Assembly: GCF_035285525.1 (NCBI RefSeq)
Contig: NZ_JAYKGW010000171.1
Span: forward strand, 47,436-79,435
DNA: 32,000 nucleotides
From: Okeania sp.
Lineage (GTDB): Bacteria > Cyanobacteriota > Cyanobacteriia > Cyanobacteriales > Microcoleaceae
Direction: 5' to 3'
The notes beneath the pieces were generated by a model. That model made no database searches. It saw only the letters and a program-made list of their open reading frames with translations, and was not told where the DNA came from. This document shows, piece by piece, positions 7,741-31,795 of this stretch (position 1 is its first letter; every line of letters begins with the position of its first letter). The position numbers were made by a program, and so were the translations under genes.

Positions 7741-7843
7741 TAGGACTTACGCAAAGAAACCGGGTTTCTAGGATAAATTGTTGTTTTGAGCAATAGACGT
7801 CTACCCTCGTACCGGGTTTCTGGGTTCACTTGCGTAAGTCCTG
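7741..7843. mobile_element. MITE-like element, copy 1 (103 bp)
   Basis: Termini are TAGGACTTACGCAAAG...CACTTGCGTAAGTCCTG. Flanking direct repeats AGTAAT lie at 7735-7740 and 7844-7849. The interior has AGAAACCGGGTTTCT-type palindromes, and the left repeat abuts the TAA stop of the giant gene. Confidence 0.85.
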
Positions 7844-7907
7844 AGTAATATTATAGGATTTATAGGGGCAAGTGGCCATCTACTCCCTACTTCCTTAAAT
7901 AAATAAT

Positions 7908-8525
7908 ATGAAAATTCAAAAAACAACTTTAATATTAATGTTAATAGCACTTACTTTAGGAGGATTCGTTTACTTATTTGAAATTGTAGGTAAACAAAAG
8001 CAAGCAGAAATTCAAGAACAAAGAAAACGAGTGTTTGATTTTGAGGACGAACAAATTCAGGCTGTTACTATCAAACAAAAGTCAGGAATATTAACTTTAA
8101 AGATTGACGAACAAGCAGAAGAAAAATCTTGGAATATAACTGCACCTATAGCCAAAAAAGCTGATTTACAAACAGTCGAATTTTTGTTAGATGAACTAGA
8201 AAATCTCAAAAGCGATCACTCAATTACTACTTCAGTTTCTCAGTTATCAGAATATGGTTTAGAAAAACCAGAAATAACTTTAGAAATTCAACTTAAAGAT
8301 GGTAAAACAAATCGTTTATTTTTAGGTCAACCAGACTTTGATAATAGATTTATATATTCTCAATTAGAATTGGAGGGAGAAGCACCGGAAAAAGTATCTA
8401 TTTTGTTGTTATCTATCAACTTCAAAAATATAATAACTAAACCAGTTTCTGAATGGGAAGAACAAGAAAAAATTGAAGAATCATCGGATAAAACAGAAGA
8501 ATCTTTAGATAAAAAAGATGAGTGA
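7908..8525 (+). CDS. Membrane-anchored hypothetical protein, DUF4340-like
   Basis: 205-aa ORF with an N-terminal TM helix (TLILMLIALTLGGFVYLF). The remainder resembles DUF4340-family proteins from memory, and the C-terminal tail is acidic. Confidence 0.7.
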   Translation: MKIQKTTLILMLIALTLGGFVYLFEIVGKQKQAEIQEQRKRVFDFEDEQIQAVTIKQKSGILTLKIDEQAEEKSWNITAPIAKKADLQTVEFLLDELENLKSDHSITTSVSQLSEYGLEKPEITLEIQLKDGKTNRLFLGQPDFDNRFIYSQLELEGEAPEKVSILLLSINFKNIITKPVSEWEEQEKIEESSDKTEESLDKKDE

Positions 8526-8569
8526 TAAAATTAAAATTAATTTAGTATTCTAGAGGTATTTCCTGTTAT

Positions 8570-8867
8570 TTAAACAACAGCAAACTCAGTTAAATTAAGA
8601 GTTTCCAGATCGTAGAAAGGTAAAAGAATATCTTCTTTTGGTACATTTTCCCTTAATAACTCATTAGCAATTCCTTCTTCCGTCCAATCTTCCTGAATAT
8701 AAATCTTCTCATTTTTAATCCGAATATAAACAGAAATTGCTTTAATTATTTGACCATTTTTCCAACCAATATTAAACCAAGGATATTTACTTCTTTGGTC
8801 ATTAAACATTAATAGCTAATCAATATCAGGAGCGATAACCTGTTTGATAATTAATCAATTTGTACAT
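8570..8867 (-). pseudogene. xisI: xisI-like gene, disrupted
   Basis: ATG at 8867 gives MYKLINYQTGYRS then a stop. The 79-codon ORF 8570-8809 (FNIGWKNG...IYIQEDWTEEGIANELL...VPKEDILLPF...LTEFAVV) matches the XisI C-terminal two thirds. About 20 codons are missing in between. Confidence 0.7.
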
Positions 8868-9364
8868 TTAATAATCTCCTCTTTTTTGACGTCAATTACT
8901 AATAGTATAATTTGATATTTTTGCAGTATTAATTCAATTGCAACTTGTACAAAAAAAAATCATAAATTTCGCGATCAACTGCTAAATAAACTTGATAACT
9001 AGGATGTATAATATAGCAATGTGCGCACTTAATATTTACAAATTGCCGGAGGTGTCGAATAGCTAAAAACTTTATATTATAGGCTATTCATTCTTCCTCC
9101 ATACCTGTTCCCTGTTGCCTCTTCCCTAAAAGCAGCGCTATAGAAAGAAATGTTTGATAAATTAAGTATTGTCCTAATGCTGTTTCAAATTCAAGCATCG
9201 GAGAGGGAGTCACAAAACTTTTAATTTCAATCACAATTTGTTGCCCTTCTCTGGTTGCAGAAATTGTTTTTTCACCAGCTATATCTGCAAACAATTTAAC
9301 TTCTTCATATTTAATAGGATAAGGGTCATTTCAGTTATTAGTATCTCCTGAAATCAGGAGGCAT
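8855..9364 (-). pseudogene. xisH: xisH-like gene, disrupted in three fragments
   Basis: The start fragment is MPPDF.. with a stop (9364-9338). The core is NDPYPIKYEEVKLFADIAGEK...IVIEIKSF...ALGQYLIYQ (about 9330-9145). The C-terminal fragment is QVYLAVDREIYDFFFVQVAIELILQKYQIILLVIDVKKEEIIKCTN* (about 9012-8855). Core and C-terminus are separated by about 100-130 nt carrying a GGGAACAGGGAA-type repeat, and the stop overlaps the xisI ATG. Confidence 0.7.
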
Positions 9365-9679
9365 TGAGTTATAAATAAAACTTTTATTATATCATACTTT
9401 GACAATTATTGAAAAAAGATTCTTCCTTTGAATTTTTCTTTTCCTTCTACCTTCCTCTAAATTATCGGAAGACTGAAATAAAGTCTGGTATAGCTATTAC
9501 AGCCAAGATAGTTATACTTTATCTATAAAACAGACAAGATACCTGTTAGTGTTTTACTTCACTGAAGTGAAATGAACTACAAAGACCTTAAAAATAATTT
9601 AAAATACTAAACAATCTCATACTTAAATTTATTAAGACCCAATTTCCCAATCATATTCCCAAATTAAAACATAGCAATT

Positions 9680-10819
9680 ATGACTCAAACTGCACTAAAT
9701 ATTGGGACAACCCTAACCAAAACCCAAAACGACGTTGAATTGCGTAAAGTCTTCAAAGTATTTGATGGCCATGCAGCAGTACGAGGCGTGGACTTCAATA
9801 TTCGTCAAGGAGAATTTTTCAGTATTCTCGGCCCTTCTGGTTGTGGTAAAACTACCACATTACGCTTAATAGCTGGATTTGAAACCCCATCAGCAGGTGA
9901 AATAATGATTAGGGGTAAATCGATGAGCCAAATTCCGGCTTATCGTCGCCCAGTCAACACTGTTTTTCAAAGCTACGCTTTATTCAACCATCTAACTGTT
10001 GAAAATAACATTGCTTTTGGACTCCGAATCAAAGGTTTAGGAAAAGTAGAAACTGAGGAAAAGGTAGCACAAGCTCTACAGTTAGTGAAAATGGAGAAAT
10101 TTGCCGAGCGCTATCCGAATCAAATATCTGGTGGACAACAACAACGGGTAGCTTTAGCTAGGGCTTTAGTAAATCGTCCAGCAGTATTATTATTAGATGA
10201 ACCCCTTGGTGCCTTAGACTTGAAATTACGCAAACAAATGCAAATGGAATTGTCCAATTTACACCGAAATTTGGGGGTGACATTTGTAATGGTGACTCAC
10301 GACCAGGAAGAGGCCATGAGTATGTCCGACCGTATTGCGGTAATGCACGAAGGCAGAATAGAGCAAATAGGTTCTCCCCAAGAAATTTATGAACGCCCCG
10401 CAAGTCCGTTTGTGGCAGATTTTATTGGAGATACAAATTTATTTCAAGGTCGGGTCGAATATAATGATGACTCTCATCTGGTTGTGAAGACAAATAGTGG
10501 TCTGAAGATTTTTGTACAACAACCACAAGTGAGTCAAAAAAATGGAGAAATATATGGTGGTGCTTCAGTATTTGTAAGTGTGCGGCCAGAAAAGGTTAGT
10601 ATAAGTCTTTATTCTCCAGATGTATCAGAAAATTGTTTTGAAGGCAGGTTAATTAATGTAATGTATTTGGGAACTCATGTACATTATCAAGTAAATTTGT
10701 TGTCAGGCGAGCAGGTAATGGTGAGGCAACCAAATACTGAAGGAACATTGCCTGACCCCAATACTCCTATCTATGTTTATTGGGCAAAACACCATTGTTT
10801 GGCTTTAAGTGAATCATAA
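9680..10819 (+). CDS. potA: Spermidine/putrescine ABC transporter ATP-binding protein
   Basis: Walker A GPSGCGKTT, signature ISGGQQQRVALARAL, Walker B LLLDEPLGALD and H-loop VTHDQEEA, plus a C-terminal TOBE-like region. Confidence 0.9.
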   Translation: MTQTALNIGTTLTKTQNDVELRKVFKVFDGHAAVRGVDFNIRQGEFFSILGPSGCGKTTTLRLIAGFETPSAGEIMIRGKSMSQIPAYRRPVNTVFQSYALFNHLTVENNIAFGLRIKGLGKVETEEKVAQALQLVKMEKFAERYPNQISGGQQQRVALARALVNRPAVLLLDEPLGALDLKLRKQMQMELSNLHRNLGVTFVMVTHDQEEAMSMSDRIAVMHEGRIEQIGSPQEIYERPASPFVADFIGDTNLFQGRVEYNDDSHLVVKTNSGLKIFVQQPQVSQKNGEIYGGASVFVSVRPEKVSISLYSPDVSENCFEGRLINVMYLGTHVHYQVNLLSGEQVMVRQPNTEGTLPDPNTPIYVYWAKHHCLALSES

Positions 10820-10886
10820 AAAGTAATTAAACATATTTAAAACTTCAACCTAGACTTACTTGTGACCTTGAACTTTTATAACTACC

Positions 10887-12044
10887 GTGCCTCCAACTAA
10901 TTTACAGAAATACCAGCATGATGTAGCTAAATCAATTTACCCCAAAATTGGTAATAATTCTAGACGTAAATTTTTGAAAGCGTCAGCAGCTACTATCGCA
11001 GTTTCAACTCTATCCAGTTGTGGTTGGAAATTAGCCGAAGTGAAATCCGATCCTCCAACACAGGGCGATCCAGATTCACTCTATATTTATACTTGGGCTG
11101 GCTACACAGATCAAGATATGCTTGATCGCTTCTACGATGAAACTGGAATTAAAGTAACCGCAGATGTGTTTGACTCTAATGAATCAATGCTAGCTAGAAT
11201 CCAAGCGGGAGGAGGTGGAGCTTATAGTATCATCTATCCATCTGACTATATGGTGAAAAAAATGGCTGGGCTAAATTTGCTGACAGAGTTAGACCAGTCT
11301 CTAATTATTGGTTTGGAGGATCTATTTCCTCAATTTCAAAACCCTATATACGATCCAGGTAATGCCTATAGTGTACCCGTAGCTTGGGGAACTACTGGTT
11401 TAATTTACAATAGCAAATTGTTACCAACAACTCCTGATGATTGGGAATATCTCTGGGAAAATCAAGATTTGGTATCAAAGCGGATGACTTTAATCAATGA
11501 TGTCCGTGAGGTGATGGGGTGTACTTTAAGAAAATTAGGATATTCTTATAATTCTACTAATGAAGAACATATTAAGCAAGCTTATGAAGAGTTACTGAGA
11601 CTCAAACCAGCGATCGCTTCTTTTACTACATATGGTTGGCAAGCTCAAATGTTGGTGGAAGATTTGTTGATTGCAATGTGTTATTCTTCTGATGCTGCGG
11701 AAGTTCAACCAGAAAATGAAGATTTAGAATATGTTGTTCCCAGTAGTGGTTCATCCTTGTGGACGGATACATTAGTCATTCCCAAAAATGCTCCTAACCG
11801 AGATGGTGCTTATCAATGGATTAACTTTATTTTACAGCCAGATGTAGCAGCTCAAGTTGTGGAAAGACTTAGTTTTGCCACAGCTTCTCGTGCAGCTTAT
11901 GAAATGTTACCAGAAGAAATCAAAGAAGACCCTACTTTATTTGCTCCAGAGTCAGTTATTCAAAACTGTGAAGGTATAGCTCCATTGGGTGAATCTTGGG
12001 AAGAAGTTTATGACAAATATTGGACTCAATTAACAAGTGGATAA
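10887..12044 (+). CDS. potD: Polyamine ABC transporter substrate-binding lipoprotein
   Basis: Twin-arginine motif SRRKFLK followed by lipobox LSSC. PotD/PotF-like body (LYIYTWAGYTD, PVAWGTTGLIYN). GTG start at 10887. Confidence 0.85.
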   Translation: MPPTNLQKYQHDVAKSIYPKIGNNSRRKFLKASAATIAVSTLSSCGWKLAEVKSDPPTQGDPDSLYIYTWAGYTDQDMLDRFYDETGIKVTADVFDSNESMLARIQAGGGGAYSIIYPSDYMVKKMAGLNLLTELDQSLIIGLEDLFPQFQNPIYDPGNAYSVPVAWGTTGLIYNSKLLPTTPDDWEYLWENQDLVSKRMTLINDVREVMGCTLRKLGYSYNSTNEEHIKQAYEELLRLKPAIASFTTYGWQAQMLVEDLLIAMCYSSDAAEVQPENEDLEYVVPSSGSSLWTDTLVIPKNAPNRDGAYQWINFILQPDVAAQVVERLSFATASRAAYEMLPEEIKEDPTLFAPESVIQNCEGIAPLGESWEEVYDKYWTQLTSG

Positions 12045-12049
12045 TTTAA

Positions 12050-12290
12050 GGAAGAAGGAAGAAGGAACAAGGAGGAAGGAGGAAGAAAAAAGGAGGAAGA
12101 AAGAAGACAAATTTCTAAGTTTATTTGAGGGAATTATTCTACCAACTTTTTTTTAAGTTATTAAGTTTTAAAAAGAGGAAGGAAGAAGAAGGAAGTAGAT
12201 AAGGAAGAAGTAAATAAGGAAGAAGACAAGTTCCTAAGTTTATTTTATGGAATTATTCTACCAACTTTTTTCAAGTTATTAAGTTTTCAA
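12050..12290. repeat. Tandem duplication of a ~120-bp unit (polypurine GGAAGAAGG/GGAGG tract plus AT-rich tail)
   Basis: agaagacaaatttctaagtttatttgagggaattattctaccaac at 12102 recurs as agaagacaagttcctaagtttattttatggaattattctaccaac at 12221. Each copy is preceded by about 50-60 nt of almost pure purine. Confidence 0.85.
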
Positions 12291-12318
12291 ATTTTAACTT
12301 GAACTGAAAGCTGATAAT

Positions 12319-12367
12319 TAGACATCCTCAAAAATTAAAAATATCATCAATTAGTCTCCCCTATTCC
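12319..12367. repeat. Copy of the GGGAAYAGGGA / TTTTTGGAGATGTCT small repeat family (reverse orientation)
   Basis: tagacatcctcaaaaattaaaaatatcatcaattagtctcccctattccc parallels 15638-15679, 20313-20392 and 28966-29033. Confidence 0.6.
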
Positions 12368-12466
12368 CAGTTAAGTGTTCCCTGTTTCCTAGCGCCTAGC
12401 GCTATAATTACTCCCCCCTATTCCCAGTTAAGTGTTCCCTGTTCCCTAGCGCCTAGCGCCATAACT
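12356..12466. repeat. Tandem 55-nt duplication immediately upstream of potB
   Basis: ctcccctattcccagttaagtgttccctgtttcctagcgcctagcgctataatta (12356-12410) is repeated at 12411-12466 with few changes. The second copy ends 4 nt before the potB ATG. Confidence 0.85.
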
Positions 12467-12470
12467 GATT

Positions 12471-14687: not shown

Positions 14688-14845
14688 ATGAATGTTTGGC
14701 GGAGGAACTATAAAAATTAAATGAATGTTGGCTACGGGATCTTTCCGGCTGCCACTGCTGTGTTTTGTAAATGATTTATAAGAAAGGATTGTAGGGGTTT
14801 GGTCTCCAAATCCGTATCAAACTAATAAGATGAAACTAGGAGTAT

Positions 14846-15577: not shown

Positions 15578-15679
15578 GAGGGAACAGGGAGCAGAAAGAA
15601 AGAATTAATAATTTCTCGATAAAATTGGAGATGTCTAATAGACATCTACAAAAATTAACAATATAATCAATTATTACCC
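15578..15679. repeat. Head-to-head pair of GGGAAYAGGGA/TTTTTGGAGATGTCT family repeats with a perfect 19-nt palindrome at the junction
   Basis: AGATGTCTA-A-TAGACATCT lies at 15629-15647. The left arm begins gagggaacaggga and the right arm is tagacatctacaaaaattaacaatataatcaatta. Confidence 0.65.
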
Positions 15680-15747
15680 ATAAATCATCAATTACTCCTG
15701 CAAAATATTACTTTTTAATTTTGACTTTTAATAAAGTTTTGGGTCTC

Positions 15748-16374: not shown

Positions 16375-16465
16375 CAGGACTTACACAAAGGTACTATGTA
16401 TAGAGTTCAAAAACTATTGTCCAATAGTTTTGGGCTCTATATATAGCGTCTCTGCGTAAGTCCTG
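16375..16465. mobile_element. MITE-like element, copy 2 (91 bp)
   Basis: Termini are CAGGACTTACAC...CTGCGTAAGTCCTG, with an inner hairpin AAAACTATT-gtcc-AATAGTTTT. No clear TSD. Sits between the divergent rluE and hydrolase starts. Confidence 0.7.
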
Positions 16466-17420: not shown

Positions 17421-17529
17421 AGCTGATATAGGAGCCGAAGCCAAGGGGGCGGACGCATCAAAAGTCTAAAACCCAGACAGAGCAGGATTTTTCCTTCTGC
17501 CTTCAGCATAGCTGTCTTCAGCATAGCTG
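17421..17529 (-). repeat. Dispersed ~105-nt repeat, copy X1 (reverse orientation of 27016-27122)
   Basis: The reverse complement gcagctatgctgaag..gcagaaggaaaaatcctgctctgtctgggttttagacttttgatgcgtcc...ctatatcagc aligns with 27030-27122. Confidence 0.7.
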
Positions 17530-17617: not shown

Positions 17618-17767
17618 CAGAACTTACGCATTAGGAAAGAGCTTTGGTCATTTTAGATTGCTTTCCTTTCCTACGGAATACTACGCAAAGGGAATGCTCA
17701 GCAAAAGCTGTCCCTGGCGCTGCGAGTAGTGCAATGACAGAAATACGTTGCGCGTGCGTAAGTCCTG
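17618..17767. mobile_element. MITE-like element, copy 3 (150 bp)
   Basis: Termini are CAGAACTTACGCA...GTGCGTAAGTCCTG, with TSD ATACA at 17613-17617 and 17768-17772. The right arm gcaatgacagaaatacgttgcgcgtgcgtaagtcct is shared with 23936-23970. Confidence 0.85.
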
Positions 17768-18590: not shown

Positions 18591-18748
18591 CAGGACTTAC
18601 ACGGGAGGCACTATATATGGAGTATTGCTCAGTTACGACATACGCTTTACATGTCCCGTAGCGTTTCGGCGCTTGAGCCGACATATAAAGCGGAGCTTTG
18701 CGGAACGCAAAACACACCCTACCCATAGCGTTCATGGCTTTAGTCCTG
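18591..18748. mobile_element. MITE-like element, copy 4 (158 bp)
   Basis: Left end is CAGGACTTACAC and the variant right end is CATAGCGTTCATGGCTTTAGTCCTG. TSD ATTTT at 18586-18590 and 18749-18753. Confidence 0.85.
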
Positions 18749-18936
18749 ATTTTTTTATTAGAACTTACGCAAAGAAAGGCACTGATAGATAGGTTCTTGG
18801 TGCGTTACCAAGTCCGCTTTTCATGTCCCGTAGCGTTTCGGCGCTTGAGCCGACATATAAAGCGGAGCTTTGCGGAACGCAAAACACACCCTACTGGACT
18901 TTTTCATCTTAAATGGTGCATTAGAAAATGGGAGAT

Positions 18937-18966
18937 GGGGTGATGGAGGGGGATGGGGGGATGGGG
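18937..18966 (+). other. G-quadruplex-forming motif
   Basis: GGGG-tgatgga-GGGGG-at-GGGGGG-at-GGGG gives four G-runs of at least 4 with loops of 7 nt or less. Confidence 0.6.
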
Positions 18967-19041
18967 TGACGAAAAAAGCTATTTTAGGTGAAACAATGCA
19001 CTACTACACTGACACACCTAAAACTGTGCAGAGCGATTTTT

Positions 19042-19311
19042 TCTACCTTGTCTACCTTATCTACCTTATCTACCTTGTCTACCTTATCTACCTTGTCTAC
19101 CTTATCTACCTTATCTACCTTGTCTACCTTATCTACCTTATCTACCTTATCTACCTTGTCTACCTTATCTACCTTGTCTACCTTATCTACCTTGTCTACC
19201 TTATCTACCTTGTCTACCTTATCTACCTTGTCTACCTTGTCTACCTTATCTACCTTGTCTACCTTATCTACCTTATCTACCTTATCTACCTTATCTACCT
19301 TGTCTACCTTA
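19042..19311. repeat. Tandem nonamer array, 30 perfect copies of TCTACCTTR
   Basis: Counted unit by unit. Position 9 reads G A A G A G A A G A A A G A G A G A G A G G A G A A A A G A. A degenerate tail runs to about 19335. The array is flanked by inverted repeat ACTGACACAC (19008-19017) and GTGTGTCAGT (19360-19369). Confidence 0.95.
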
Positions 19312-19401
19312 TCTACCTGTCCTCCTTGTCTACCCATAACCAAAAAGTAACGCACCATTGTGTGTCAGTCCACTATAGTGTTCATGGGTAAGTCCTATCT
19401 A

Positions 19402-20268: not shown

Positions 20269-20312
20269 AATCTTATAGCAAATCTAGTTTAATACCAATA
20301 ATATTTATCAAA

Positions 20313-20392
20313 TAAACATCTCCAAAAATCCCAAATATAATCAATTTTTTTTCATTATTTATGATGAAAAAAAATTATTTTCCCTGTTCCCT
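20313..20392. repeat. Copy of the GGGAAYAGGGA/TTTTTGGAGATGTCT repeat family (reverse orientation)
   Basis: aaacatctccaaaaatcccaaatataatcaatttttttt...ttttccctgttccctc. Confidence 0.55.
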
Positions 20393-23280: not shown

Positions 23281-23407
23281 TAGTAGACAGATACAGATAA
23301 AATGTTGCATGGGGTAGGGGCGGGTTTTAGCTAGAATTTTCATGCTTACTCTAAGATTTATATAAACCCGCCAATCATGCACACTCATTAGCTGTGTCTG
23401 TCTAGTA
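23281..23407. repeat. 127-nt multi-tier imperfect palindrome
   Basis: Outer arms TAGTAGACAGATACAG / CTGTGTCTGTCTAGTA match 14/16. Middle arms are TTGCATG/CATGCAC and inner arms are GGCGGGTTT (23319-27) / AAACCCGCC (23364-72). A paralogue lies at 27364-27505. Confidence 0.75.
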
Positions 23408-23420
23408 GGGATTTAGTATC

Positions 23421-23641
23421 TAAATCCTATTTCAGATTTCGTTTAGAGACCAAACCTTTACAGTTTTTTTTGAGAAATTTCTTCATCAGGACTTACGCAA
23501 AGGCTCTATATACAGAGTATAGGTGCGTTACGCTACGCTTTTCATATCGCGCAGCGAAACGCACCCTACCAATAGCTAAATCCTATTTTAGATTTCGTTT
23601 GGAGACCAAACCCTTACAGTTTTTTTTAGAAGTTTCTTCAT
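23421..23641. repeat. Two 65-66-nt direct repeats flanking a truncated MITE
   Basis: taaatcctatttcagatttcgtttagagaccaaacctttacagttttttttgagaaatttcttcat (23421-23486) recurs at 23577-23641 with a few substitutions. Confidence 0.85.
23487..23576. mobile_element. MITE-like element, copy 6, right end missing (90 bp)
   Basis: CAGGACTTACGCAAAGGCTCTATATACAGAG...GCACCCTACCAATAGC. It stops where other copies continue to GTTCATGGCTTTAGTCCT. Confidence 0.7.
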
Positions 23642-23747
23642 ATTGCTATATTATTTAGTTATCAAGACATCCAGCTAAATCTATAGTTTTGAAATACTAA
23701 ATTTTATTATTTGCATCATTCTTTACTTAGGTTATTTAGAATATAAT

Positions 23748-23842
23748 CAGGACTGACGCAAGTGCAATGTATTTTCGTCCGATACGACGGTCGGGAAGCA
23801 ATCTCAAACCCCTGTTTTTCGTACCTCATGGCTTTAGTCCTC
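23748..23842. mobile_element. MITE-like element, copy 7a (95 bp)
   Basis: CAGGACTGACGCAAGTGCAATGTATTTTCG...CCTCATGGCTTTAGTCCTC. Looks closely similar to copy 10 (27123-27215) over its full length by eye. Confidence 0.75.
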
Positions 23843-23852
23843 ATCATATTAA

Positions 23853-23971
23853 CAGGACTAAAGCCATGAGGAGCGGAATTTTCTTGGCTTGAGATTGCTA
23901 TCCTGACGGACTGCTTCGCCAACGCTCCTCGCGGGCAATGACAGAAATACGTTGCGCGTGCGTAAGTCCTA
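23853..23971. mobile_element. MITE-like element, copy 7b (119 bp)
   Basis: Variant left end CAGGACTAAAGCCATGAGG and right end GCGTGCGTAAGTCCTA. The interior ttgagattgctatcctgacggactgc is shared with copy 13. Only 10 nt separate it from copy 7a. Confidence 0.7.
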
Positions 23972-24096
23972 AGTAAATAAAAAAACTAAAATTCTCACCT
24001 ATTCCCTCCATACCTATTCCCTAAAAATTAGATAAAATTAACTTAAAGTTTAGAACTTAATCATAAACAAATAATTGATATTCTGAAAAAGTAATA

Positions 24097-24759
24097 ATGA
24101 TGGAAAATTTTTCACTCTATAATTCTACTAATAGAAGTCTATTTAAGCAAATTAAGCAAAATTTTCAACAGCAACAACAGGTTAAAACTATTTTTGGGAA
24201 AATACCATCCATATTATTAACAACATTTATTTGTACCACAGCGATCGCTCAAGAATATCCAGGATGTTTTATACTTGACCAAGCTGGCAATAGGAAAGAT
24301 TTAACCATATCAATTTGTAATCTATCTGTAGAAGAATTATCAGAACAAGTATCAACTTCAACAACTACAGTAGCAGGAATATATCAAATACCAATCAAAA
24401 GTCGTCGCGGAGGTAGTCCGGTAATTGATGTTACTTTTAATGGTAATCAAACTTATGAAATGATTTTAGATACTGGTGCAAGTTCTACTTTAATTACTCA
24501 AGAAATGGCAAAAACTCTCAAAGTTATAACTTTAGAAAAAAGAAATTTTACTTTAGCGGATGGCAAAGATGTACAATTAGGGGTTGGCAAAGTTGGTTCT
24601 ATTTCTGCGGGAGGTTTAACACTTAGCCAATTTGATGTTGCTGTTGCTCCTACAGATGCAGATCAAGAATTAGGGTTACTGGGGCAAAATTTTTTTGGCT
24701 CCTATGATATAACCATCAAGGAAAATGTAGTAGAATTGAAGGTACGTTCTGGTGGTTAG
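24097..24759 (+). CDS. Retropepsin-like (clan AA) aspartic protease with N-terminal anchor
   Basis: Catalytic ILDTGASSTLIT, a hydrophobic N-terminal segment ILLTTFICTTAIA and a poly-Q run. Confidence 0.75.
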   Translation: MMENFSLYNSTNRSLFKQIKQNFQQQQQVKTIFGKIPSILLTTFICTTAIAQEYPGCFILDQAGNRKDLTISICNLSVEELSEQVSTSTTTVAGIYQIPIKSRRGGSPVIDVTFNGNQTYEMILDTGASSTLITQEMAKTLKVITLEKRNFTLADGKDVQLGVGKVGSISAGGLTLSQFDVAVAPTDADQELGLLGQNFFGSYDITIKENVVELKVRSGG

Positions 24760-24777
24760 AAGCTAGAAATGTTTAAA

Positions 24778-24940
24778 TATTGGTAACACAACCTTCTAGG
24801 TTGTTACAGCAAACGAAGGCTGTGTTACTCTAAATATGCAGATAGCGTTCATGGGTAAGTCCTGATCTAATCGTCTATTGGTAACACAACCTTCTAGGTT
24901 GTGACAGCAAACGAAGGCTGTGTTACTCTAAATATGCAGA
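24778..24940. repeat. Two 65-nt hairpin units (24778-24842, 24876-24940) flanking a MITE end fragment
   Basis: tattggtaacacaaccttctaggttgtKacagcaaacgaaggctgtgttactctaaatatgcaga occurs twice with 1 mismatch. Each unit has a 14-bp stem GTAACACAACCTTC / GAAGGCTGTGTTAC. Confidence 0.9.
24843..24864. mobile_element. MITE right-end fragment (22 nt)
   Basis: TAGCGTTCATGGGTAAGTCCTG equals the right ends of copies 4 and 5. Confidence 0.6.
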
Positions 24941-24971
24941 AGGTTTTTTTCATTTCAAATCTAGAAATTTT

Positions 24972-26024: not shown

Positions 26025-26115
26025 ATAAGTTTAGCTTACTGGTTATCAAAGTAGTTGTTTGAAGTTAAATATTACAGAATTTAGGTGCAAGAAAAGCAAA
26101 ACATAATAATTTTAT

Positions 26116-26270
26116 TAGGACTTACCCATGGGGAAGGAAATTTAAAGGTTTGAGATTGCTTTCGGTCTGGAATGCGGAGCATTCATGTCGCGGAGCGCAA
26201 AACGCTGTGGCTTGCGCTTCCCAAAGCTGCGCTGACACAATGACAAAATTGCGTTTATGCGTAAGTCCTG
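26116..26270. mobile_element. MITE-like element, copy 9 (155 bp)
   Basis: TAGGACTTACCCATGGGG...TTATGCGTAAGTCCTG, with TSD TTTAT at 26111-26115 and 26271-26275. Confidence 0.85.
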
Positions 26271-26314
26271 TTTATAAGTTATTGCGCAGATTGTTGTTCA
26301 AACCAGAAAATTTA

Positions 26315-26345
26315 TGCAAAGAAACCCGGTTTCTGCGTAAATCCT
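26315..26345. mobile_element. Collapsed MITE remnant
   Basis: GCAAAGAAACCCGGTTTCTGCGTAAATCCTG keeps the palindrome module and right end but lacks the AGGACTTAC left end. Ends 7 nt from the stop of the 26353 gene. Confidence 0.5.
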
Positions 26346-26352
26346 GACTATT

Positions 26353-26961
26353 CTACCGACCAGGATACAAACGTATGAGAGCAATCCCTGTAATTGCAGC
26401 AACCAGAAACCAGGTGACAGATAAACCAATTACCTCACTAATAAAGAAACCGCTCTCTTGATAAATCAACCCACCGACTGCCCAACCTAGAGATAAACCA
26501 ATTGCCCAAGCAATAATATTTGCAATCATCCACCACTCTTCCCAATATATTTGCTTCCTCAAGACAAACCATTGACCTAATCCTAAAATCCCTCCCACAA
26601 TAGCACCATTAATAAATCCGTAAAATAACCTTAGCCAAATTTGTTCGGTTCTGGGAGCGATCCAACCTAATGCTCCCAAACTACCTGCCCCAATTAATAA
26701 CCAAGTCAAAATGCTTACCACTATCCACCATTTACTGCGGTAGATCAGATTTCTCAGTACCAACCATTGTGTTAGTCCAATGATACCTCCACCAATAGCT
26801 CCGGAAAAAGCTCCAACATAGGGTCTCACTCCGACTTCCACAAATATTAAGCTGAGGAAAAAGCCGATAATAGTGAAAAATACCCACTGTAACCAAAAAC
26901 CCCATCCAATTTGTTGGGGTGTAGTCTGGGAGAAATTATAGTACAACTTGGTAAGTGACAT
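26353..26961 (-). CDS. Integral membrane protein with internally duplicated module
   Basis: 202 aa and very hydrophobic. GGGIIGLTQWLVLRNLIYRSKWWIVVSILTW and VGGILGLGQWFVLRKQIYWEEWWMIANIIAW are clear paralogous units. Confidence 0.75.
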   Translation of the reverse strand: MSLTKLYYNFSQTTPQQIGWGFWLQWVFFTIIGFFLSLIFVEVGVRPYVGAFSGAIGGGIIGLTQWLVLRNLIYRSKWWIVVSILTWLLIGAGSLGALGWIAPRTEQIWLRLFYGFINGAIVGGILGLGQWFVLRKQIYWEEWWMIANIIAWAIGLSLGWAVGGLIYQESGFFISEVIGLSVTWFLVAAITGIALIRLYPGR

Positions 26962-27015
26962 TAAAGATATTTTCTTAGTTATAGAAACTGGGTTGGCATT
27001 AAATATTATACTATA

Positions 27016-27122
27016 GCAGAAGGCAGAAGGCAGCTATGCTGAAAGCAGAAGGAAAAATCTGGCTTTGTCTAGGTTTTAGGCTTTTGATACATCCTAACCG
27101 CCTTGGGAGTTGCTATATATAG
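27016..27122 (+). repeat. Dispersed ~105-nt repeat, copy X2
   Basis: Aligns with the reverse complement of 17421-17529. Abuts MITE copy 10. Confidence 0.7.
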
Positions 27123-27215
27123 CAGGACTTACGCAACTGCAACGTATTTTCCTCCGATATGACAACAGGAAGCAATCTCAAACCCCTGTTTTTCCTACCT
27201 CATGGTTTAGTCCTA
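27123..27215. mobile_element. MITE-like element, copy 10 (93 bp)
   Basis: CAGGACTTACGCAACTGC...CCTCATGGTTTAGTCCTA, with TSD TATAG at 27118-27122 and 27216-27220. Confidence 0.85.
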
Positions 27216-27380
27216 TATAGATTAACAGCACTAATAGATAGATGGGCATTACAGCAATTTTCATTTCAGTAGACCAAAGTAGAGAGCTTGCATAAGGGCG
27301 TCCCTGCAAGGTTGTGGTTATGGCTCCAGTCCGGTGGTTCATCAAGAGTGAAAAGCGCTGTAGGGCGGGTTTATGTAAAT

Positions 27381-27451
27381 TAGGACTTACGCAAAGAAAC
27401 CCGATTTCTAGGCTCGTACCGGGTTTCTGGGTTCGCGTGGCTTTAGTCCTG
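27381..27451. mobile_element. MITE-like element, copy 11 (71 bp)
   Basis: TAGGACTTACGCAAAGAAACCCGATTTCTAGG...GCGTGGCTTTAGTCCTG, with TSD TAAAT at 27376-27380 and 27452-27456. It interrupts a paralogue of the 23281-23407 palindrome. Confidence 0.9.
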
Positions 27452-27539
27452 TAAATCTTAAGAGTAAACATTAAAATTCTAGCTAAAAACTGCTCCTACT
27501 ATTGGGTGGGTGAGACACTCCCTGTACTTCTATAATCAA

Positions 27540-27659
27540 CAGGACGCAAAGGCACTATATATAGCGTCTTGCTCAGTTACGAGATACGCTTTACATGTCG
27601 CGTAGCGTTAGCGGAACGCAAAACACACCCTACCAGTAACGTTCATGGCTTTAGTCCTA
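27540..27659. mobile_element. MITE-like element, copy 12 (120 bp, left end lacks TTAC)
   Basis: CAGGACGCAAAGGCACTATATATAGCG...AACGTTCATGGCTTTAGTCCTA, with TSD ATCAA at 27535-27539 and 27660-27664. The right TSD contains the stop codon of the adjacent gene. Confidence 0.85.
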
Positions 27660-27660
27660 A

Positions 27661-28959
27661 TCAAGTTTCTTTCGGACGAGATACAGAAGTAGGAAACATT
27701 TGCTTAAACCGAATACGTCGCTCTTGGGGTGAGTCTGGAGTCATATAACTCCATAAAGTTTCCCAATAGAAAAAAGATACACCGGCAAAGTTGCGATCGC
27801 GTACTGCTTGCACTTGTTCTTGAATTTTCTCAATTCTCATAGTGGTTTTTAAGGTTCCTGCGAGAATACCAATACTAAAAGGAATTTTATTTCTAGTATT
27901 TTTGACAGGAGGTTGTTCCAACTCTTCTACAAATGAAGATAAACCATCTCTATACACCTGCAAAATAAATTCATCTACAAAACCTCTCTCGATCCAAGTT
28001 TGCCAGTCTTGTAAATATAAATTGTAGGAAAAATCATAAGGATTAGAAGATACAGAGACAATACAGTTGGGTTTAACAGCTTTGATAGATTTATAAAGTC
28101 TTTCCAGGAAGGCAGTAATTTGATTCGCTCGCCATTGCATCCATTCTGGGTTGGTAAAATCTTCTGGAGGATTTTTCCCTTGATGTTGTTGCCGATAAAG
28201 TTGTACTGTAACCGGATCGTAGCCAAATTGTACTGGCATTCCGAAGCGATCGTCTACTTGGATGCCATCGACATCGTATTTTTGCACAACTTCTAATATT
28301 AACTCTAGAATAAAGTTTTGCACCTGGGGATTAATAGGATTCAGCCAAACATTGTTGATGGAGAGTGACTGCTGAAGTTGGTTTAATAAAGATTTTTCAT
28401 CTGATTCCGGGAGTAAATCTTTTAATTCTAATTCAAATATACTTTCAGAAAAATTGCTGTTTTTGTCAATGCTCGTTGTTACCCAATGGGGATGACGTTT
28501 GACTAATACAGAATTGACTGGGGCCATGAAACCATATTCAAACCAAGGGATAACTCGGAGACCTTGGCGATGAGATTGTTTAAATATTTCTTTGAGTACA
28601 TCTCGCCCCAGACGAAATAAAGCTAAAGTAGAGTCTTGAGATTTACCTGTAACTTTTTTGGCGACTTTACTTGGGTAAAAGGTGTTACCCCGGTTCCAGG
28701 TTACGGGATAAACTGTGTTGAAATTGAGTTGAGAAAGTTGACGGAGAGCGCGATTAATTGCCCAAGGAGTGAATAATACACTACTGCTAACGTTGGTGAT
28801 CCAGACTCCCCGCACTTCTTTTTCTGTTGTGATTTTGGCATTGACTGGAGTTGGAGGGGTTAATATTGTGCTGAGGGCAATGGAGAGGATAGCGATCGCT
28901 ACTCCTACGACTAGACATATTTTTAATTGTTTTAATTTATGATTAATTTTATTAGTCAT
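27661..28959 (-). CDS. Glycoside-hydrolase-like family 10 (GHL10/DUF187) protein with signal anchor
   Basis: N-terminal TM segment ICLVVGVAIAILSIAL. EVRGVWITNV...LNFNTVYPVTWNRGNTFYPS...VIPWFEYGF...VWLNPINPQVQNF...DGIQVDDRFG follows the GHL10 pattern. Confidence 0.8.
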   Translation of the reverse strand: MTNKINHKLKQLKICLVVGVAIAILSIALSTILTPPTPVNAKITTEKEVRGVWITNVSSSVLFTPWAINRALRQLSQLNFNTVYPVTWNRGNTFYPSKVAKKVTGKSQDSTLALFRLGRDVLKEIFKQSHRQGLRVIPWFEYGFMAPVNSVLVKRHPHWVTTSIDKNSNFSESIFELELKDLLPESDEKSLLNQLQQSLSINNVWLNPINPQVQNFILELILEVVQKYDVDGIQVDDRFGMPVQFGYDPVTVQLYRQQHQGKNPPEDFTNPEWMQWRANQITAFLERLYKSIKAVKPNCIVSVSSNPYDFSYNLYLQDWQTWIERGFVDEFILQVYRDGLSSFVEELEQPPVKNTRNKIPFSIGILAGTLKTTMRIEKIQEQVQAVRDRNFAGVSFFYWETLWSYMTPDSPQERRIRFKQMFPTSVSRPKET

Positions 28960-28965
28960 TTACAG

Positions 28966-29033
28966 AAAAGAGGGAATAGGGAATAGGGAATAGGGAATAA
29001 TAATTGATTTTACTTTTGATTTTTGGAGATATC
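28966..29033. repeat. 68-bp GGGAATAGGGAAT/TTTTTGGAGATATC family element flanked by a 16-bp direct repeat
   Basis: TATTAGTCATTTACAG at 28950-28965 and 29034-29049 is identical (16/16). The interior is aaaagagggaatagggaatagggaatagggaataataattgattttacttttgatttttggagatatc. Confidence 0.8.
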
Positions 29034-29069
29034 TATTAGTCATTTACAGTTTGATCAATTTTTAAGTTG

Positions 29070-29312
29070 TCAATTCATTCCCATAACCTCTGAAATAGGT
29101 AGCAAGAGAATATCTGAGAATTCAAGTTCAATTTGAATAGTTTCATAGCTTTGTTCCAGTGATAACTTACCAATATTCAACTTAATAGCAATTTCCCAGA
29201 GACTAGCAATACTTAGATAAACTTTATCTGCTACATCAATCATATTTCTTATGTTATTAGGCAAATTAGGATCGTTTTCAGATAACCAAATAAAGGTATG
29301 AGTATCTAACAA
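29070..29312 (-). pseudogene. vapC: PIN-domain (VapC-like) toxin, C-terminally truncated
   Basis: LLDTHTFIW and SLWEIAIKLNIGKL match the PIN N-terminal half. The ORF ends at about 80 aa without the C-terminal acidic/PFDR region. The only available start is a TTG. Confidence 0.6.
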
Positions 29313-29320
29313 AAAATTAC

Positions 29321-29551
29321 TTATTCCATGTACTCCTTAAAATCTACCAATGGCTCGTCAAAATCATCAGGTAATGGTAAAACAAACGTTCCTTTTAATA
29401 TACCAGAACGACGTTTTTTTAAAGGATACTGCTCTATGGCAACATCTTTCGAGTAGTTTTCCATCAAATACTTGGCATAATGTAGAACTTCTTGTTTGAG
29501 AGATTCTGGCGTTTTTTCGATCATTTTCCAAATTTCTGTGTCAGTCTTCAT
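29321..29551 (-). CDS. DUF2281-like antitoxin
   Basis: MKTDTEIWKMIEKTPESLKQEVLHYAKYLMENY...GILKGTFVLPLPDDFDEPLVDFKEYME. ATG at 29551. Stop is 8 nt upstream of the PIN start. Confidence 0.7.
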   Translation of the reverse strand: MKTDTEIWKMIEKTPESLKQEVLHYAKYLMENYSKDVAIEQYPLKKRRSGILKGTFVLPLPDDFDEPLVDFKEYME

Positions 29552-30027
29552 GGTTGTTATTAGCTTATATTTTGTATTTATAGATACCCATAAAATAGAA
29601 AGCATATATCAATAAAAAATAATTGATATTTTAGGTTGTCAAAATAATAATTTTTACAGAAAATAAGATACTTCTTTTATTCTAAAAATGCTAATTTTTT
29701 TGGGTAAGGATTCAGCTATTAGCTGTCAGCTAACCTCCTGGGTCGGAGCTGCGCTAACAGCAATAAAAACCTCAGTTCTTAAAGAGAATATTTAAACGAA
29801 TCAAGAAAGTAAAAACTGAATTTTGTATCAGAAAAATTTCTGATTTATCGGCAACCGTATCATTAAGCTTTTTTCTCAAAATAAAATCAATAGCTGACCG
29901 CTGAATGCTGAGTGCTGAATGCTTAAACTTTTTGCAGTTTTAGGAACTAAAAAGCCAGCATTTTTTCGGGTAAAAAAAGGCACTTAATTCTTGACATTTT
30001 CAAAGTTACAGCTATTTATAATTAAAT

Positions 30028-30224
30028 CAGGACTTACGCATGAGGAACGAAATTTCAAGGTTTGAGGTTGCTATCCTGACGGACTGCGACCCATTCATGT
30101 CGCGGAGCGAAACTCTGTCGCTGGCGCAGCGCCAGCGCAGCGCTTTTCATGTCGCGTAGCGTTTTATGTCGGCTCAAGCGCCGAAAACGCAATAACGGCA
30201 ATACCTTATTTTGCGTAAGTCCTA
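30028..30224. mobile_element. MITE-like element, copy 13 (197 bp)
   Basis: CAGGACTTACGCATGAGGAACG...TTATTTTGCGTAAGTCCTA, with TSD TAAAT at 30023-30027 and 30225-30229. Confidence 0.85.
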
Positions 30225-30240
30225 TAAATGTTGATAACTA

Positions 30241-30257
30241 GCGGGCATTTTGCCCGC
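30241..30257 (-). terminator. Candidate stem-loop downstream of argD
   Basis: GCGGGCA-ttt-TGCCCGC is a 7-bp GC-rich stem 44 nt past the argD stop. The trailing sequence on the minus strand is only moderately U-rich. Confidence 0.35.
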
Positions 30258-30301
30258 GTAGATGTACATCGCGCCTGGTAGAATCCGCTGTGTTTCGCTA
30301 C

Positions 30302-31573
30302 CTACTTAACAACATTAGCGATCGCTTTTGCTAAAATATTTATACCCTCTGTTACTTCAGTCTCATTAACTATCAGTGGAGGCACAAACCGCAAAACCTT
30401 TGGACCTGCTGGCACGATTAATAAACCTTCATTCATAGCAGCTTTAACTAGCTCGATAGAAGTCAACTCGATATCTGCATTTAACTGCATACCATTAATC
30501 AAACCCCAACCGCGAACTTCCGTAAACAAATTAGGATACTTAGTTGCAATAGCATTTAATCCTACCCGCAACTGTTCCCCCCGCTGCTGTACATTTGTCA
30601 ATAAATTTTCCTGTTCCAAAGTTTGACAAACCGCCAACGCTACCGCGCAAGCAAAAGGGTTGCCACCAAAAGTGCTAGCATGACTTCCTGGCGCAAACAC
30701 ATCACAGTCAGATTTACATAACATTGCACCAATGGGGATACCGCCACCTAACCCCTTTGCAGAAGTGAAAATATCTGGTTCAATGCCCAGATTTTCATAT
30801 CCCCAAAGTTTGCCACTACGTCCCATTCCTACTTGTACTTCATCCAATATTAAAAGAATACCTTTCTCATTACAAATTTCCCTAATTCTTTGGAAATAAG
30901 CTACATCACCAGGACGGACACCCCCTTCTCCCTGAAGGGGTTCCAGCATAATAGCTGCAACCTGTCGTTCATCTTTATCTAAGAGAGCGATCGCTTTTTC
31001 TATAGCAGCAATATCATTGTAGGGAACATAATAAAATCCTGGCATCAACGGACTAAAACCTTTATGATATTTCGGTTGTCCAGTGGCAGTAATAGTTGCC
31101 AAAGTACGTCCATGAAAACTAGCATGAGCAGTCAAAATTGTAGGATTTTCTATATTTAACTTTTCATGGGCATATTTCCTGGCAAGTTTGATTGCTGCTT
31201 CATTCGCTTCTGCTCCAGAATTACAGAAAAATGCCTTGTCAGCACAAGAATGTTCTACTAACCATTGTGCTAATTCTCCCTGAGCTGGAATATAGTATAA
31301 ATTAGACACATGATGCAGTCTTTGAATTTGCTCTGACACTGTTGCCATCATCACGGGATGAGCATGACCTAAGGTACAAGTAGCTATTCCGGCCACAAAA
31401 TCTAAATATTCTTTGCCTTCAGTATCCCAAACCCGACAACCTTGACCCCGTTCGAGGGCAAGGGGGAAACGCCCGTAAGTGTTCATCACATAAGCGTTGA
31501 AATTCTCAGCACTAAATGTTGTGTATGTACCAATTGTTTCTAGAGACTGTTTAACTATTGTTTCTGGAGTCAT
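30302..31573 (-). CDS. argD: Acetylornithine aminotransferase (class III PLP aminotransferase)
   Basis: YGRFPLALERGQGCRVWDTEGKEYLDF, LILDEVQVGMGRSGKLW and the PLP-lysine region TSAKGLGGGIPIGA. Confidence 0.9.
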   Translation of the reverse strand: MTPETIVKQSLETIGTYTTFSAENFNAYVMNTYGRFPLALERGQGCRVWDTEGKEYLDFVAGIATCTLGHAHPVMMATVSEQIQRLHHVSNLYYIPAQGELAQWLVEHSCADKAFFCNSGAEANEAAIKLARKYAHEKLNIENPTILTAHASFHGRTLATITATGQPKYHKGFSPLMPGFYYVPYNDIAAIEKAIALLDKDERQVAAIMLEPLQGEGGVRPGDVAYFQRIREICNEKGILLILDEVQVGMGRSGKLWGYENLGIEPDIFTSAKGLGGGIPIGAMLCKSDCDVFAPGSHASTFGGNPFACAVALAVCQTLEQENLLTNVQQRGEQLRVGLNAIATKYPNLFTEVRGWGLINGMQLNADIELTSIELVKAAMNEGLLIVPAGPKVLRFVPPLIVNETEVTEGINILAKAIANVVK

Positions 31574-31668
31574 AGATTATATCTTTCAGTTATGTTCGTA
31601 AAATTAAATGTCAATACTACCTTAATTTTAGGAGAGGATATAAATTTTTTCCGCTTTTTTTAATTTAT

Positions 31669-31795
31669 CAGAACTTACGATAAAGAAACCCGGTTTCTAG
31701 GTTCCTCCGCCAAGAAACCGGGTTTCTAAGTTCTCCCGCCAAGAAACCCGACTTCTAAGTTCCCCCGCCAAGAAACCGGGTTTCTAGATTCGCCT
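31669..31795. mobile_element. MITE-like element, copy 14, with expanded internal unit and no recognisable right end
   Basis: The left end is CAGAACTTACGATAAAGAAACCCGGTTTCTAGG. It is followed by tandem 29-nt units. Confidence 0.6.
31683..31794. repeat. 3.9 tandem copies of a 29-nt unit
   Basis: Unit 1 is aagaaacccggtttctaggttcctccgcc (31683-31711), unit 2 aagaaaccgggtttctaagttctcccgcc (31712-31740) and unit 3 aagaaacccgacttctaagttcccccgcc (31741-31769). A partial fourth unit runs to 31794. Confidence 0.9.

Follow-up and report, generated by a model that had tools for sequence, protein, structure and literature searches.

Short repeats with common ends lie between the genes of an Okeania region

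A 32-kb stretch of Okeania DNA (the window, by which the whole of the analysed sequence is meant) was found to contain 16 short repeat pieces that share their ends and that are all situated between genes, as none of the 16 overlaps an open reading frame (ORF) of 100 aa or more. A single gene for an RTX-repeat protein takes up the first 7.7 kb, in which there are no copies. Element E1 starts 7 bp past the stop codon of this gene, E2 occupies most of a 126-bp spacer between two divergent genes, and E13 ends 1 bp from the stop codon of a GHL10 gene. With every end read in context the pieces add up to 2282 bp. They take up 7.1% of the window, or 24.7% if only its 9.2 kb between genes are counted, and can be grouped in three alignable families. 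It is very probable that they are miniature inverted-repeat transposable elements, or MITEs, that have the ends of ISPlag1-like insertion sequences (ISs) of the IS701 family and that duplicate 5 bp of the target on insertion.

The boundary of an element was taken as the base outside AGGACT (Y...R). When one mismatch was allowed, AGGACTTACGCA was matched 19 times in the window where 0.08 matches were expected from shuffled sequences, and none of the 100 shuffles had more than one. A variant end, AGGACTAAAGCCATG, was matched five times at up to two mismatches against 0.06 expected. The common inverted termini, which had been pointed out in a previous reading of the letters without database searches (the sequence-only reading), were borne out by this enrichment. 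Either YAGGACTTACGCA or the variant AGGACTAAAGCCATG forms the terminal inverted repeat (TIR) at 26 ends of window elements. Twelve elements are two-ended (E1, E2, E3, E4, E5, E7, E8, E10, E11, E12, E13 and E14; Table 1) and have a size of 71–197 bp, except E5, which is a 639-bp composite. Besides these, two separated halves of one element, a decayed copy of ~41 bp and the right-truncated E15 were recognized. At least 15 intergenic copies of 71-224 bp plus the 639-bp composite had been counted before; the number and the intergenic position stood, and the copy of 224 bp proved to be the adjacent E7 and E8.

The pieces are small and do not code for a transposase, the size of E5 being due to a tandem array of a 9-bp unit. 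Pfam scans of 22 ORFs of the window found no transposase of any kind, with no search made that was specific for RAYT proteins, and neither Pfam nor tblastn detected a transposase remnant. This agrees with the earlier statement that the window is without a transposase gene.

Insertion is accompanied by a 5-bp target-site duplication

Perfect 5-bp target-site duplications (TSDs) were present in seven of the 12 two-ended copies (ATACA, ATTTT, TTTAT, TATAG, TAAAT, ATCAA and TAAAT). At E1 the duplication is 6 bp, AGTAAT, or 5 bp plus one extra T. The eight flanking direct repeats that the sequence-only reading had listed were all found in their places, seven of them at exactly 5 bp and that of E1 at 6 bp. 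The flanks of E5, E7 and E8 agree at four of five positions and those of E2 are without duplication. As a control, the left flank of one element was paired with the right flank of another. A complete match was obtained in three of these 132 non-cognate pairs (2.3%), and in 0.25% of random positions at equal spacing; the rate for the non-cognate pairs is not zero because the targets, being T/A-rich, resemble each other. The binomial probability of seven or more perfect TSDs in 12 copies is about 2e-9. At flank lengths of 3, 4, 7 and 8 none of the two-ended elements had matching flanks, which indicates that the length of the duplication is specifically 5 bp. The seven perfect TSDs consist of 91% A+T versus 65% in the intergenic DNA. 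Length and composition of the duplication, which had been put forward as matters for statistics, are thus both distinctive.

Direct evidence of an insertion came from a search in which the flanks of each element were joined with one copy of the TSD and uninterrupted copies of the joined sequence were sought. One match was obtained: the joined flanks of E12 agreed for 92% over 49 nt with positions 23325-23372 on the opposite strand. This paralogue of the E12 site has an intact GGCGGGTTTATATAAATCTTAGAGTAAGC with a single TAAAT, whereas the filled site reads GGCGGGTTTATGTAAAT, E12 (71 bp), TAAATCTTAAGAGTAAAC. The comparison implies that a unit of 71 bp entered another copy of a hairpin repeat, thereby duplicating TAAAT. 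The hairpin repeat itself, GGCGGGTTTATATAAATCTTAGAGTAAGCATGAAAATTCTAGCTAAAACCCGCC, occurs in two copies, at 23314-23372 and at 27355-27505, the second of which is split by E12; it may represent another small mobile or REP-like (repetitive extragenic palindromic) family.

The elements form three families

Families A, B and C have only the terminal ~13 nt in common. Family A consists of E4, E13, E6 with its detached right end, the ends of E5 and the short hairpin E2. Its left TIR is CAGGACTTACGCAAAGGCACTATATATAG, and its right end is either the identical TIR or the variant ...GTTCATGGCTTTAGTCCTG. Family B comprises E3, E8, E10 and E14, which have unlike ends, as well as E7 and E11, which are reversed forms that have lost their middle part. 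Family C (E1, E12, the 41-bp copy and E15) is made of AGAAACCSGGTTTCT palindromes. The members of the pairs E4/E13, E10/E14, E7/E11 and E1/E12 have a common internal architecture; between E4 and E13 the identity is 92% in a repeat of 60 nt and 91% in a further 54 nt, and between E10 and E14 it is 80% over 95 nt. The description of the interiors as mosaics of interchangeable modules had to be revised to that of, mostly, three families, and what remains of it is that the CATGTCSCGKAGCG motif and a 20-nt hairpin are truly shared.

The motif CATRTCSCGNAGCG occurs seven times in the window, each time within a MITE. In three MITEs the 20-nt hairpin TCGGCGCTTGAGCCGACATA follows directly after the motif CATGTCSCGTAGCGTT. 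Its copies are identical and lie forward at 18666-18685 (E4) and 18838-18857 (E5) and inverted at 30165-30184 (E14); in E13 and E6 the hairpin is absent at that spot. The module may be a nested mini-insertion or may result from inversion between the GCGTTT and AAACGC arms. Small dispersed repeats (SDRs) nested in cyanobacterial MITEs were reportedly described by Elhai and co-workers in 2008. The likeness, which holds for the nested 20-nt module only, lies in the fixed context within MITEs, the occurrence in either orientation and the absence from sister copies. The difference is that only three copies of the module exist in the window, and the likeness is one of description. It is possible that the nested hairpin represents a very small SDR-type unit that is mobile in an oscillatorian cyanobacterium.

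In E5 the left part and the right end are those of family A, and the interior consists of a G-run tract followed by 30.8 copies of the 9-bp unit TCTACCTTA (19042-19318). The tract, GGGAGATGGGGGGATGGA in about two copies, and the array together extend over 18930-19318 and are carried within the MITE. Other spacers of relatives contain short tandem repeats that are G-rich or of the TCAAAAG type.

The ends are those of ISPlag1-like IS701 elements

ISPlag1 of Planktothrix agardhii, a 1306-bp member of the IS701 group with the TIR CAGGACTTACGCAAGCACGCTATATATAG, encodes a transposase of 337 aa (Christiansen et al., 2008; PMC2464740). With this TIR as a 32-nt query, matches were found in 13 Planktothrix plasmids of PLSDB. 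The complete ISPlag1 on plasmid AP017993.1 (L124:20002-21307) has 1306 bp, an ORF of 337 aa and ACTGT on both sides. Relatives of its transposase were returned in thousands by a protein search. To survey the clade, a profile of 20 transposase sequences was run against one genome per species, which yielded 79 loci. Intact copies of 1.06–1.39 kb that end in YAGGACTTACGCA were present in Microcoleus, Planktothrix, Phormidium, Nostoc, Aliinostoc, Spirirestis, Pseudanabaena and Moorena, and IS ends with YAGGACTTACGCA were also found in Chloroflexota, Verrucomicrobiota, Latescibacteria, Caballeronia and Thioploca. In 116 distinct IS ends, positions 10–13 were conserved at 99–100%, position 14 at 82% and the positions beyond at 30–69%. 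Positions 10–13 were outside the search pattern, so their conservation was not imposed by it. Perfect 5-bp TSDs flanked 43 distinct IS insertions and consisted of 73% A+T versus 55% in the background.

Many copies of this clade, with the identical 13-nt terminus and a 5-bp TSD, reside in metagenome-assembled genomes (MAGs) of Chloroflexota and Verrucomicrobiota (loci L175-L203), and others in Caballeronia, Undibacterium, Thioploca and a Legionella-like (Tatlockia) MAG. The broad host range suggests wide horizontal spread.

Closer to the host of the window, a further protein search that set out from a marine relative led to an intact IS of 1513 bp in Okeania sp. SIO2C9 (L214:9688-11200). It encodes a transposase of 336 aa (P0228), is flanked by the TSD TTAAT and has a perfect 37-nt TIR, CAGGACTTACGCAAAGACACTATATATAGTGTATGGC, which agrees with the TIR of family A at 28 of 29 positions. 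No MITE ends were observed in the 21 kb around it. A second intact IS was found in Dapis sp. BLCC M172 (L174:354-1709; TSD TTACA). The transposases of the Okeania SIO2C9 element, ISPlag1 and the Dapis element scored 374–408 bits with the NCBIfam model NF049921, "IS701 family transposase" (cut-off 250), that of SIO2C9 scoring 374 bits, and the partner transposases also match the Pfam families DDE_5 and DDE_Tnp_1. An IS with the same TIR and a transposase, which the sequence-only reading had suggested to look for as the autonomous partner, was thus found in the ISPlag1-like IS701 elements, in which 116 ends have the 13-nt terminus and which are intact in Okeania sp. SIO2C9.

The resemblance of family A extends beyond this terminus. 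Its subterminal identity to the IS ends is 19/22 and 16/22, compared with a 95th percentile of 13 for the null, and the right TIR of E2 agrees with an IS end at 16 of the 22 subterminal positions. Together, the TIRs, the 5-bp TSDs, the common architectures, the empty site of E12 and a partner that has the same terminus and a 5-bp TSD support the view of the sequence-only reading that the repeats are MITEs.

The mechanism proposed here, as the one with the best support, is of the standard kind. A DDE transposase of ~337 aa (NF049921) would be encoded elsewhere in this genome or would since have been lost from it. It would recognize the ~13-nt terminus YAGGACTTACGCA at both ends of the element, which would be excised or copied and then joined to a target in which the two strands are cut 5 nt apart. 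The AT-biased direct repeat of 5 bp would arise when the gaps are repaired. Family A is a deletion derivative of the IS because ~30 nt of the IS's own TIR have been kept, and family B has given rise to shorter forms by internal deletion as well. The transposase would move the window elements in trans, the 13-nt terminus being presumably enough for families B and C, and an active IS would be present in this genome now or would have been so in the past.

Objections and alternatives

Several observations weigh against the view that the repeats are MITEs of ISPlag1-like elements. The intact partner was found in other species (Okeania sp. SIO2C9 and Dapis), not in the genome of the window, for which the comparison covered short contigs only. 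The ISPlag1 transposase, used as a tblastn query, had a single match in the window, which was weak and not significant (E = 0.44) and lay within the RTX gene, distant from the MITEs. In families B and C the subterminal identity is 10–12/22, which is the null level, so that they match the IS only over the terminal ~13 nt; the same holds for the variant right end of the long family A copies. A perfect 5-bp TSD is missing from five of the 12 two-ended copies. As the copies are 80–92% identical, their activity is not demonstrably recent. The orthologous spacers of the available relatives, whose proteins are 70–82% identical, have diverged too far for an alignment, and a clean orthologous pair of a filled and an empty site was not obtained. 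Finally, one family A element is split in a way that does not fit simple DDE insertion with its 5-bp stagger, as it is accompanied by flanking duplications of 65–67 bp.

The halves of this split element, 23487-23575 and 24843-24864, are 1267 bp apart and overlap by the 3 bp TAG. At its start, the DNA between them repeats the 67 bp that immediately precede the left half, and at its end it repeats, with 98% identity, 65 bp of sequence situated 11 bp beyond the right half. It contains E7, E8 and a retropepsin-like ORF, and the layout of the whole is A-ML-A'-X-B-MR-t-B' (23420-24940). No terminal inverted repeats were found on the segment between the halves. What looked like a decayed right end of the copy at 23487 was rejected as element sequence, since it is part of the flanking duplication.

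Of the alternatives, the one that survives best holds that the link to the ISPlag1-like IS exists for family A alone and that families B and C were moved by a different autonomous element, either of another IS701 sublineage or of another family that makes 5-bp TSDs. The null-level subterminal match of B and C, which share only the terminal ~13 nt with the 116 IS ends, speaks for it, as does the variant end AGGACTAAAGCCATG, which was seen on none of the IS ends examined. The 13-nt terminus is nevertheless the only part that is conserved clade-wide, the subterminal sequence varying freely between IS lineages, and this suggests that the terminus is the main determinant. Moreover, the TSDs of B and C are of the same kind, 5 bp long and AT-rich, and hybrids exist, namely the long family A copies, which combine an IS-type left TIR with the variant right end, and E14, which belongs to family B and has a family A interior. 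A separate partner for B and C is therefore considered rather unlikely.

It could also be argued that the pieces are the in-place wreckage of full-length ISPlag1-like copies of which the interiors were lost by deletion. This would account for the ~30 nt of IS-type TIR in family A, and ISPlag1 is known to leave remnants of 197 bp in Planktothrix (PMC2464740). A decayed IS of full size was also encountered in a relative: in the related MAG contig L211 an ISPlag1-like IS (6709-7846) with the TIR CAGGACTTAGGCAAAGACACTATATATAGCGT lies beside the orthologue of the hyp202 gene described below; its transposase is frameshifted and has lost its N-terminus, and a 98-bp MITE is situated at its far end. 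Independent losses would not, however, repeat their end-points, and the members of E4/E13, E10/E14, E7/E11 and E1/E12 share architectures. Families B and C have no IS-like interior, no copy holds a remnant of transposase coding sequence, and E12 is a unit of 71 bp with a 5-bp TSD within a repeat that has an intact paralogue. Decay in place is thus very improbable.

Least credible of all, and hardly worth entertaining, is that the repeats are structured sequences selected by the host (REP-like elements, terminators, promoters or small RNAs) and spread by recombination: strong hairpin folds in E1 (z = -5.3), E2 (z = -7.2) and E12 (z = -3.2) and the intergenic position of all copies, some of which abut gene ends or fill promoter spacers, would suit it, but E11 (z = -0.6) and E13 (z = -0.4) are without structure beyond their TIRs, no Rfam family reached threshold in the window, the region shows no enrichment of terminator-like consensus sites, the best promoter-like matches belong to another repeat and not to the MITEs, and fixed 5-bp TSDs with a terminus identical to that of a transposase-bearing IS are unexpected for REP-type elements. 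Identity with REP or REPIN elements was rejected on the grounds that 5-bp TSDs are present and that the termini match a DDE-type IS. Exaptation of individual MITE copies is possible.

Distribution in relatives and age of the insertions

The sequence-only reading had set the repeats in the context of Nostocales genomes. This was not upheld, as the host is Okeania (Oscillatoriales, Microcoleaceae). A 202-aa protein of the window (hyp202, 26353-26961) is 100% identical to a protein of an "Okeania sp.", and its next relatives are those of Trichodesmium sp. MO_231.B1 (82%), Okeania sp. SIO2C2 (77%) and T. erythraeum (71%). The gene order argD–GHL10–hyp202 is common to the window and these relatives. 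The spacer between GHL10 and hyp202 measures 700 bp in the window, where it contains E11, E12 and E13, and 396–417 bp in Okeania SIO2C2 and a second Okeania, in both of which it is without termini and without any of the three elements. This indicates that E11–E13 are not conserved at orthologous loci. The comparison of such loci, also proposed by the sequence-only reading, thus showed absence from two Okeania genomes where a fixed consensus would be always present. In the related MAG contigs L211–L213 the differences are complex rather than clean indels.

In comparable regions the density of ends per kb is 0.84 for the window, 0.65–0.72 for MAGs with 80% protein identity, 0.42 for a Trichodesmium-like MAG and at most 0.05 for Okeania SIO2C2 and T. 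erythraeum. The ~695 kb that surround IS copies in other genomes contained only one MITE-sized pair of ends. The uneven density and this single pair indicate that the amplification is lineage-specific, and we infer that it took place in this Okeania lineage. Families B and C are also present in Trichodesmium-like relatives, one copy having the TSD ATAGT.

E15 looks old. Its gene-proximal boundary upstream of argD, ...GTAAGTTCTG|ATAAATTAAAAAAA, is the same to the base in a degenerate family C element of T. erythraeum (L209 ~5258-5350), and the site is without element in two other relatives. The shared boundary reflects either an ancient shared insertion or a hot spot of insertion. Okeania SIO2C2 has a different MITE of 92 bp with the TSD AAAAT, 110 bp further upstream of argD (L204 5075-5166).

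A scan of IMG/VR with the 14-nt terminus gave at least three MITE-like copies on contigs classed as viral, most matches being due to chance. MITE-sized elements among the matches listed are L012 1972-2072 (5-bp TSD ACCTA), L017 350-464 and L060 14512-14626. No match to the PLSDB plasmids was obtained by blastn with two of the window MITEs, and a scan of JGI metagenomes with a 20-nt flank returned two chance matches only. In one sequencing run (SRR19514071), short contigs of the species of the window end in or beside repeats, and one of them ends within E14.

Positions of the elements and other features of the window

The positions of the elements are collected in Table 1.

Table 1. Location and properties of the repeat elements of the window, with the paralogous empty site of E12.
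Feature	Position	Strand	Properties
E1, family C MITE	7741..7843	+	103 bp; AGAAACCSGGTTTCT palindrome arms; AGTAAT at 7735-7740 / 7844-7849
E2, short family A	16375..16465	.	91 bp; near-perfect single hairpin from two ~30-nt ISPlag1-like TIRs; no TSD
E3, family B MITE	17618..17767	+	150 bp; TSD ATACA
E4, family A MITE	18591..18748	+	158 bp; TSD ATTTT; variant right end CATGGCTTTAGTCCTG; nested 20-nt hairpin module 18666-18685
E5, composite	18759..19397	+	639 bp; family A left part and right end; flanks TTTAT/TCTAT (4/5)
E6, family A left part	23487..23575	+	89 bp; break after ...CCTACCAATAG
E7, short family B	23748..23842	-	95 bp; internally deleted, reverse orientation; flanks ATAAT/ATCAT (4/5)
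E8, family B MITE	23853..23971	+	119 bp; 10 bp from E7; flanks ATTAA/AGTAA (4/5)
Right end complementary to E6 half	24843..24864	+	TAGCGTTCATGGGTAAGTCCTG; 3-bp overlap TAG; between 65-bp direct repeats 24778-24842 / 24876-24940
E10, family B MITE	26116..26270	+	155 bp; TSD TTTAT
Decayed family C copy	26306..26346	+	~41 bp; one palindrome and right end GCGTAAATCCTG
E11, short family B	27123..27215	-	93 bp; reverse orientation; TSD TATAG
E12, family C MITE	27381..27451	+	71 bp; TSD TAAAT; within a hairpin-repeat copy
E13, family A MITE	27540..27659	+	120 bp; TSD ATCAA; left terminus with 5-nt deletion
E14, family B MITE	30028..30224	+	197 bp; TSD TAAAT; family-A-like segment, 20-nt hairpin module inverted (30165-30184)
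E15, old family C copy	31669..31795	+	3.6 tandem 29-bp palindrome units; degenerate left terminus CAGAACTTACGAT; right end truncated; no TSD
Paralogous empty site for E12	23314..23372	-	uninterrupted hairpin repeat GGCGGGTTTATATAAATCTTAGAGTAAGC...AAACCCGCC

The RTX protein encoded at 61-7734 has 2557 aa, with 10 matches to RTX calcium-binding repeats and two SBP_bac_3 domains. Scans of the window with Rfam and for tRNA genes found none. Two further intergenic repeats were observed. The first is a dispersed repeat of ~55 nt in four copies with 69–81% identity (12314-12368, 15634-15688 and 20308-20362 on the forward strand and 28998-29056 on the reverse strand). Several of the strongest sigma-70-like promoter matches of the window, among them the highest-ranking, lie in this repeat; an example is TAGACA-17-TATAAT at 15639-15667. 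The second is an inverted pair of 72 nt, 86% complementary and 9.5 kb apart (17451-17522 / 27023-27094), which is unrelated to the MITE termini.

Relation to known elements

ISPlag1 and the window elements have the 13-nt terminus CAGGACTTACGCA in identical form, and the extension of its TIR, ...CTATATATAG, is in common with family A. They also have the 5-bp TSD, the existence of short non-coding derivatives and the host family Microcoleaceae in common. They differ in that ISPlag1 has 1306 bp and a transposase of 337 aa, whereas the window elements are 71–197 bp, non-coding and reside in Okeania, and in that the interiors of families B and C are unrelated to it. Furthermore, the ISPlag1 remnants were described as scars of deletions at the mcy locus (PMC2464740), and the elements of the window are an amplified MITE family. 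The ISs of SIO2C9 and Dapis come from the genus Okeania itself or from a neighbouring marine genus and likewise have 5-bp AT-rich TSDs, TTAAT and TTACA; unlike the window elements they are autonomous, 1356–1513 bp long, and belong to other species.

Nezha of Anabaena variabilis and Nostoc PCC 7120 is a MITE of ~130–170 bp with A+T-rich targets (Zhou et al., 2008). It resembles the window elements in being a cyanobacterial MITE that inserts in A+T-rich sequence and has TIRs in common with an IS. Nezha makes a direct repeat of 10 bp, which reads CATTATCTAC in the reference copy, and has an ISNpu3-like partner, whereas the window elements have 5 bp and IS701-type ends. Nezha was therefore rejected as their family, its repeat of 10 bp being at variance with the lack of matching flanks at 7 or 8 bp.

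In a prokaryote-wide census of 2024, Okeania sp. KiyG1 and O. hirsuta were the most MITE-diverse, with 278 and 320 MITEs of 225 and 221 kinds, respectively (PMC11602168). Microcystis has MaeMITEa–h and also an IS of the IS701 family, ISMae34 (PMC2779907), and the 147 MITEs of Anabaena sp. 90 were classed without an IS partner in that genome (PMC3542288). Like the repeats of the window, the catalogued cyanobacterial MITEs are intergenic elements with TIRs, present in hundreds per genome and 77–541 bp long. In the texts consulted, none of them is described with this terminus or with an IS701-type partner, the comparison being one of descriptions because the catalogues give no sequences. In the literature no text was found that ties Okeania MITEs to an IS701-type partner, with the qualification that the catalogues are not searchable by sequence. 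The sequence-only reading had been unsure whether the family had been described. Part of the answer is affirmative, as the terminus was published as that of ISPlag1 (PMC2464740) and the richness of Okeania in MITEs is known (PMC11602168); no text was found that gives this terminus for a MITE family.

Implications

The window elements are real but ordinary selfish DNA, and they leave the understanding of how MITEs work unchanged. For annotation, three Okeania repeat families gain a name, a mechanism and a partner. As a practical rule, YAGGACTTACGCA together with a 5-bp duplication finds ISPlag1-type ISs and their derivatives across several phyla. Judged by their position, some copies could affect genes: E2 in a divergent promoter spacer, E13 at 1 bp from a stop codon and E15 upstream of argD.

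A more far-reaching idea, put forward here tentatively and with more doubt than conviction, is that the 13-nt terminus YAGGACTTACGCA alone suffices for a cross-phylum IS701-type clade (cyanobacteria, Chloroflexota, Verrucomicrobiota and Proteobacteria), so that unrelated short sequences which gain the terminus, e.g. families B and C, become mobile. If true, a burst of orphan MITEs would make up about a quarter of the intergenic DNA in this Okeania lineage, and it would be among the reasons why the non-coding fraction is unusually large in the Okeania/Trichodesmium group.

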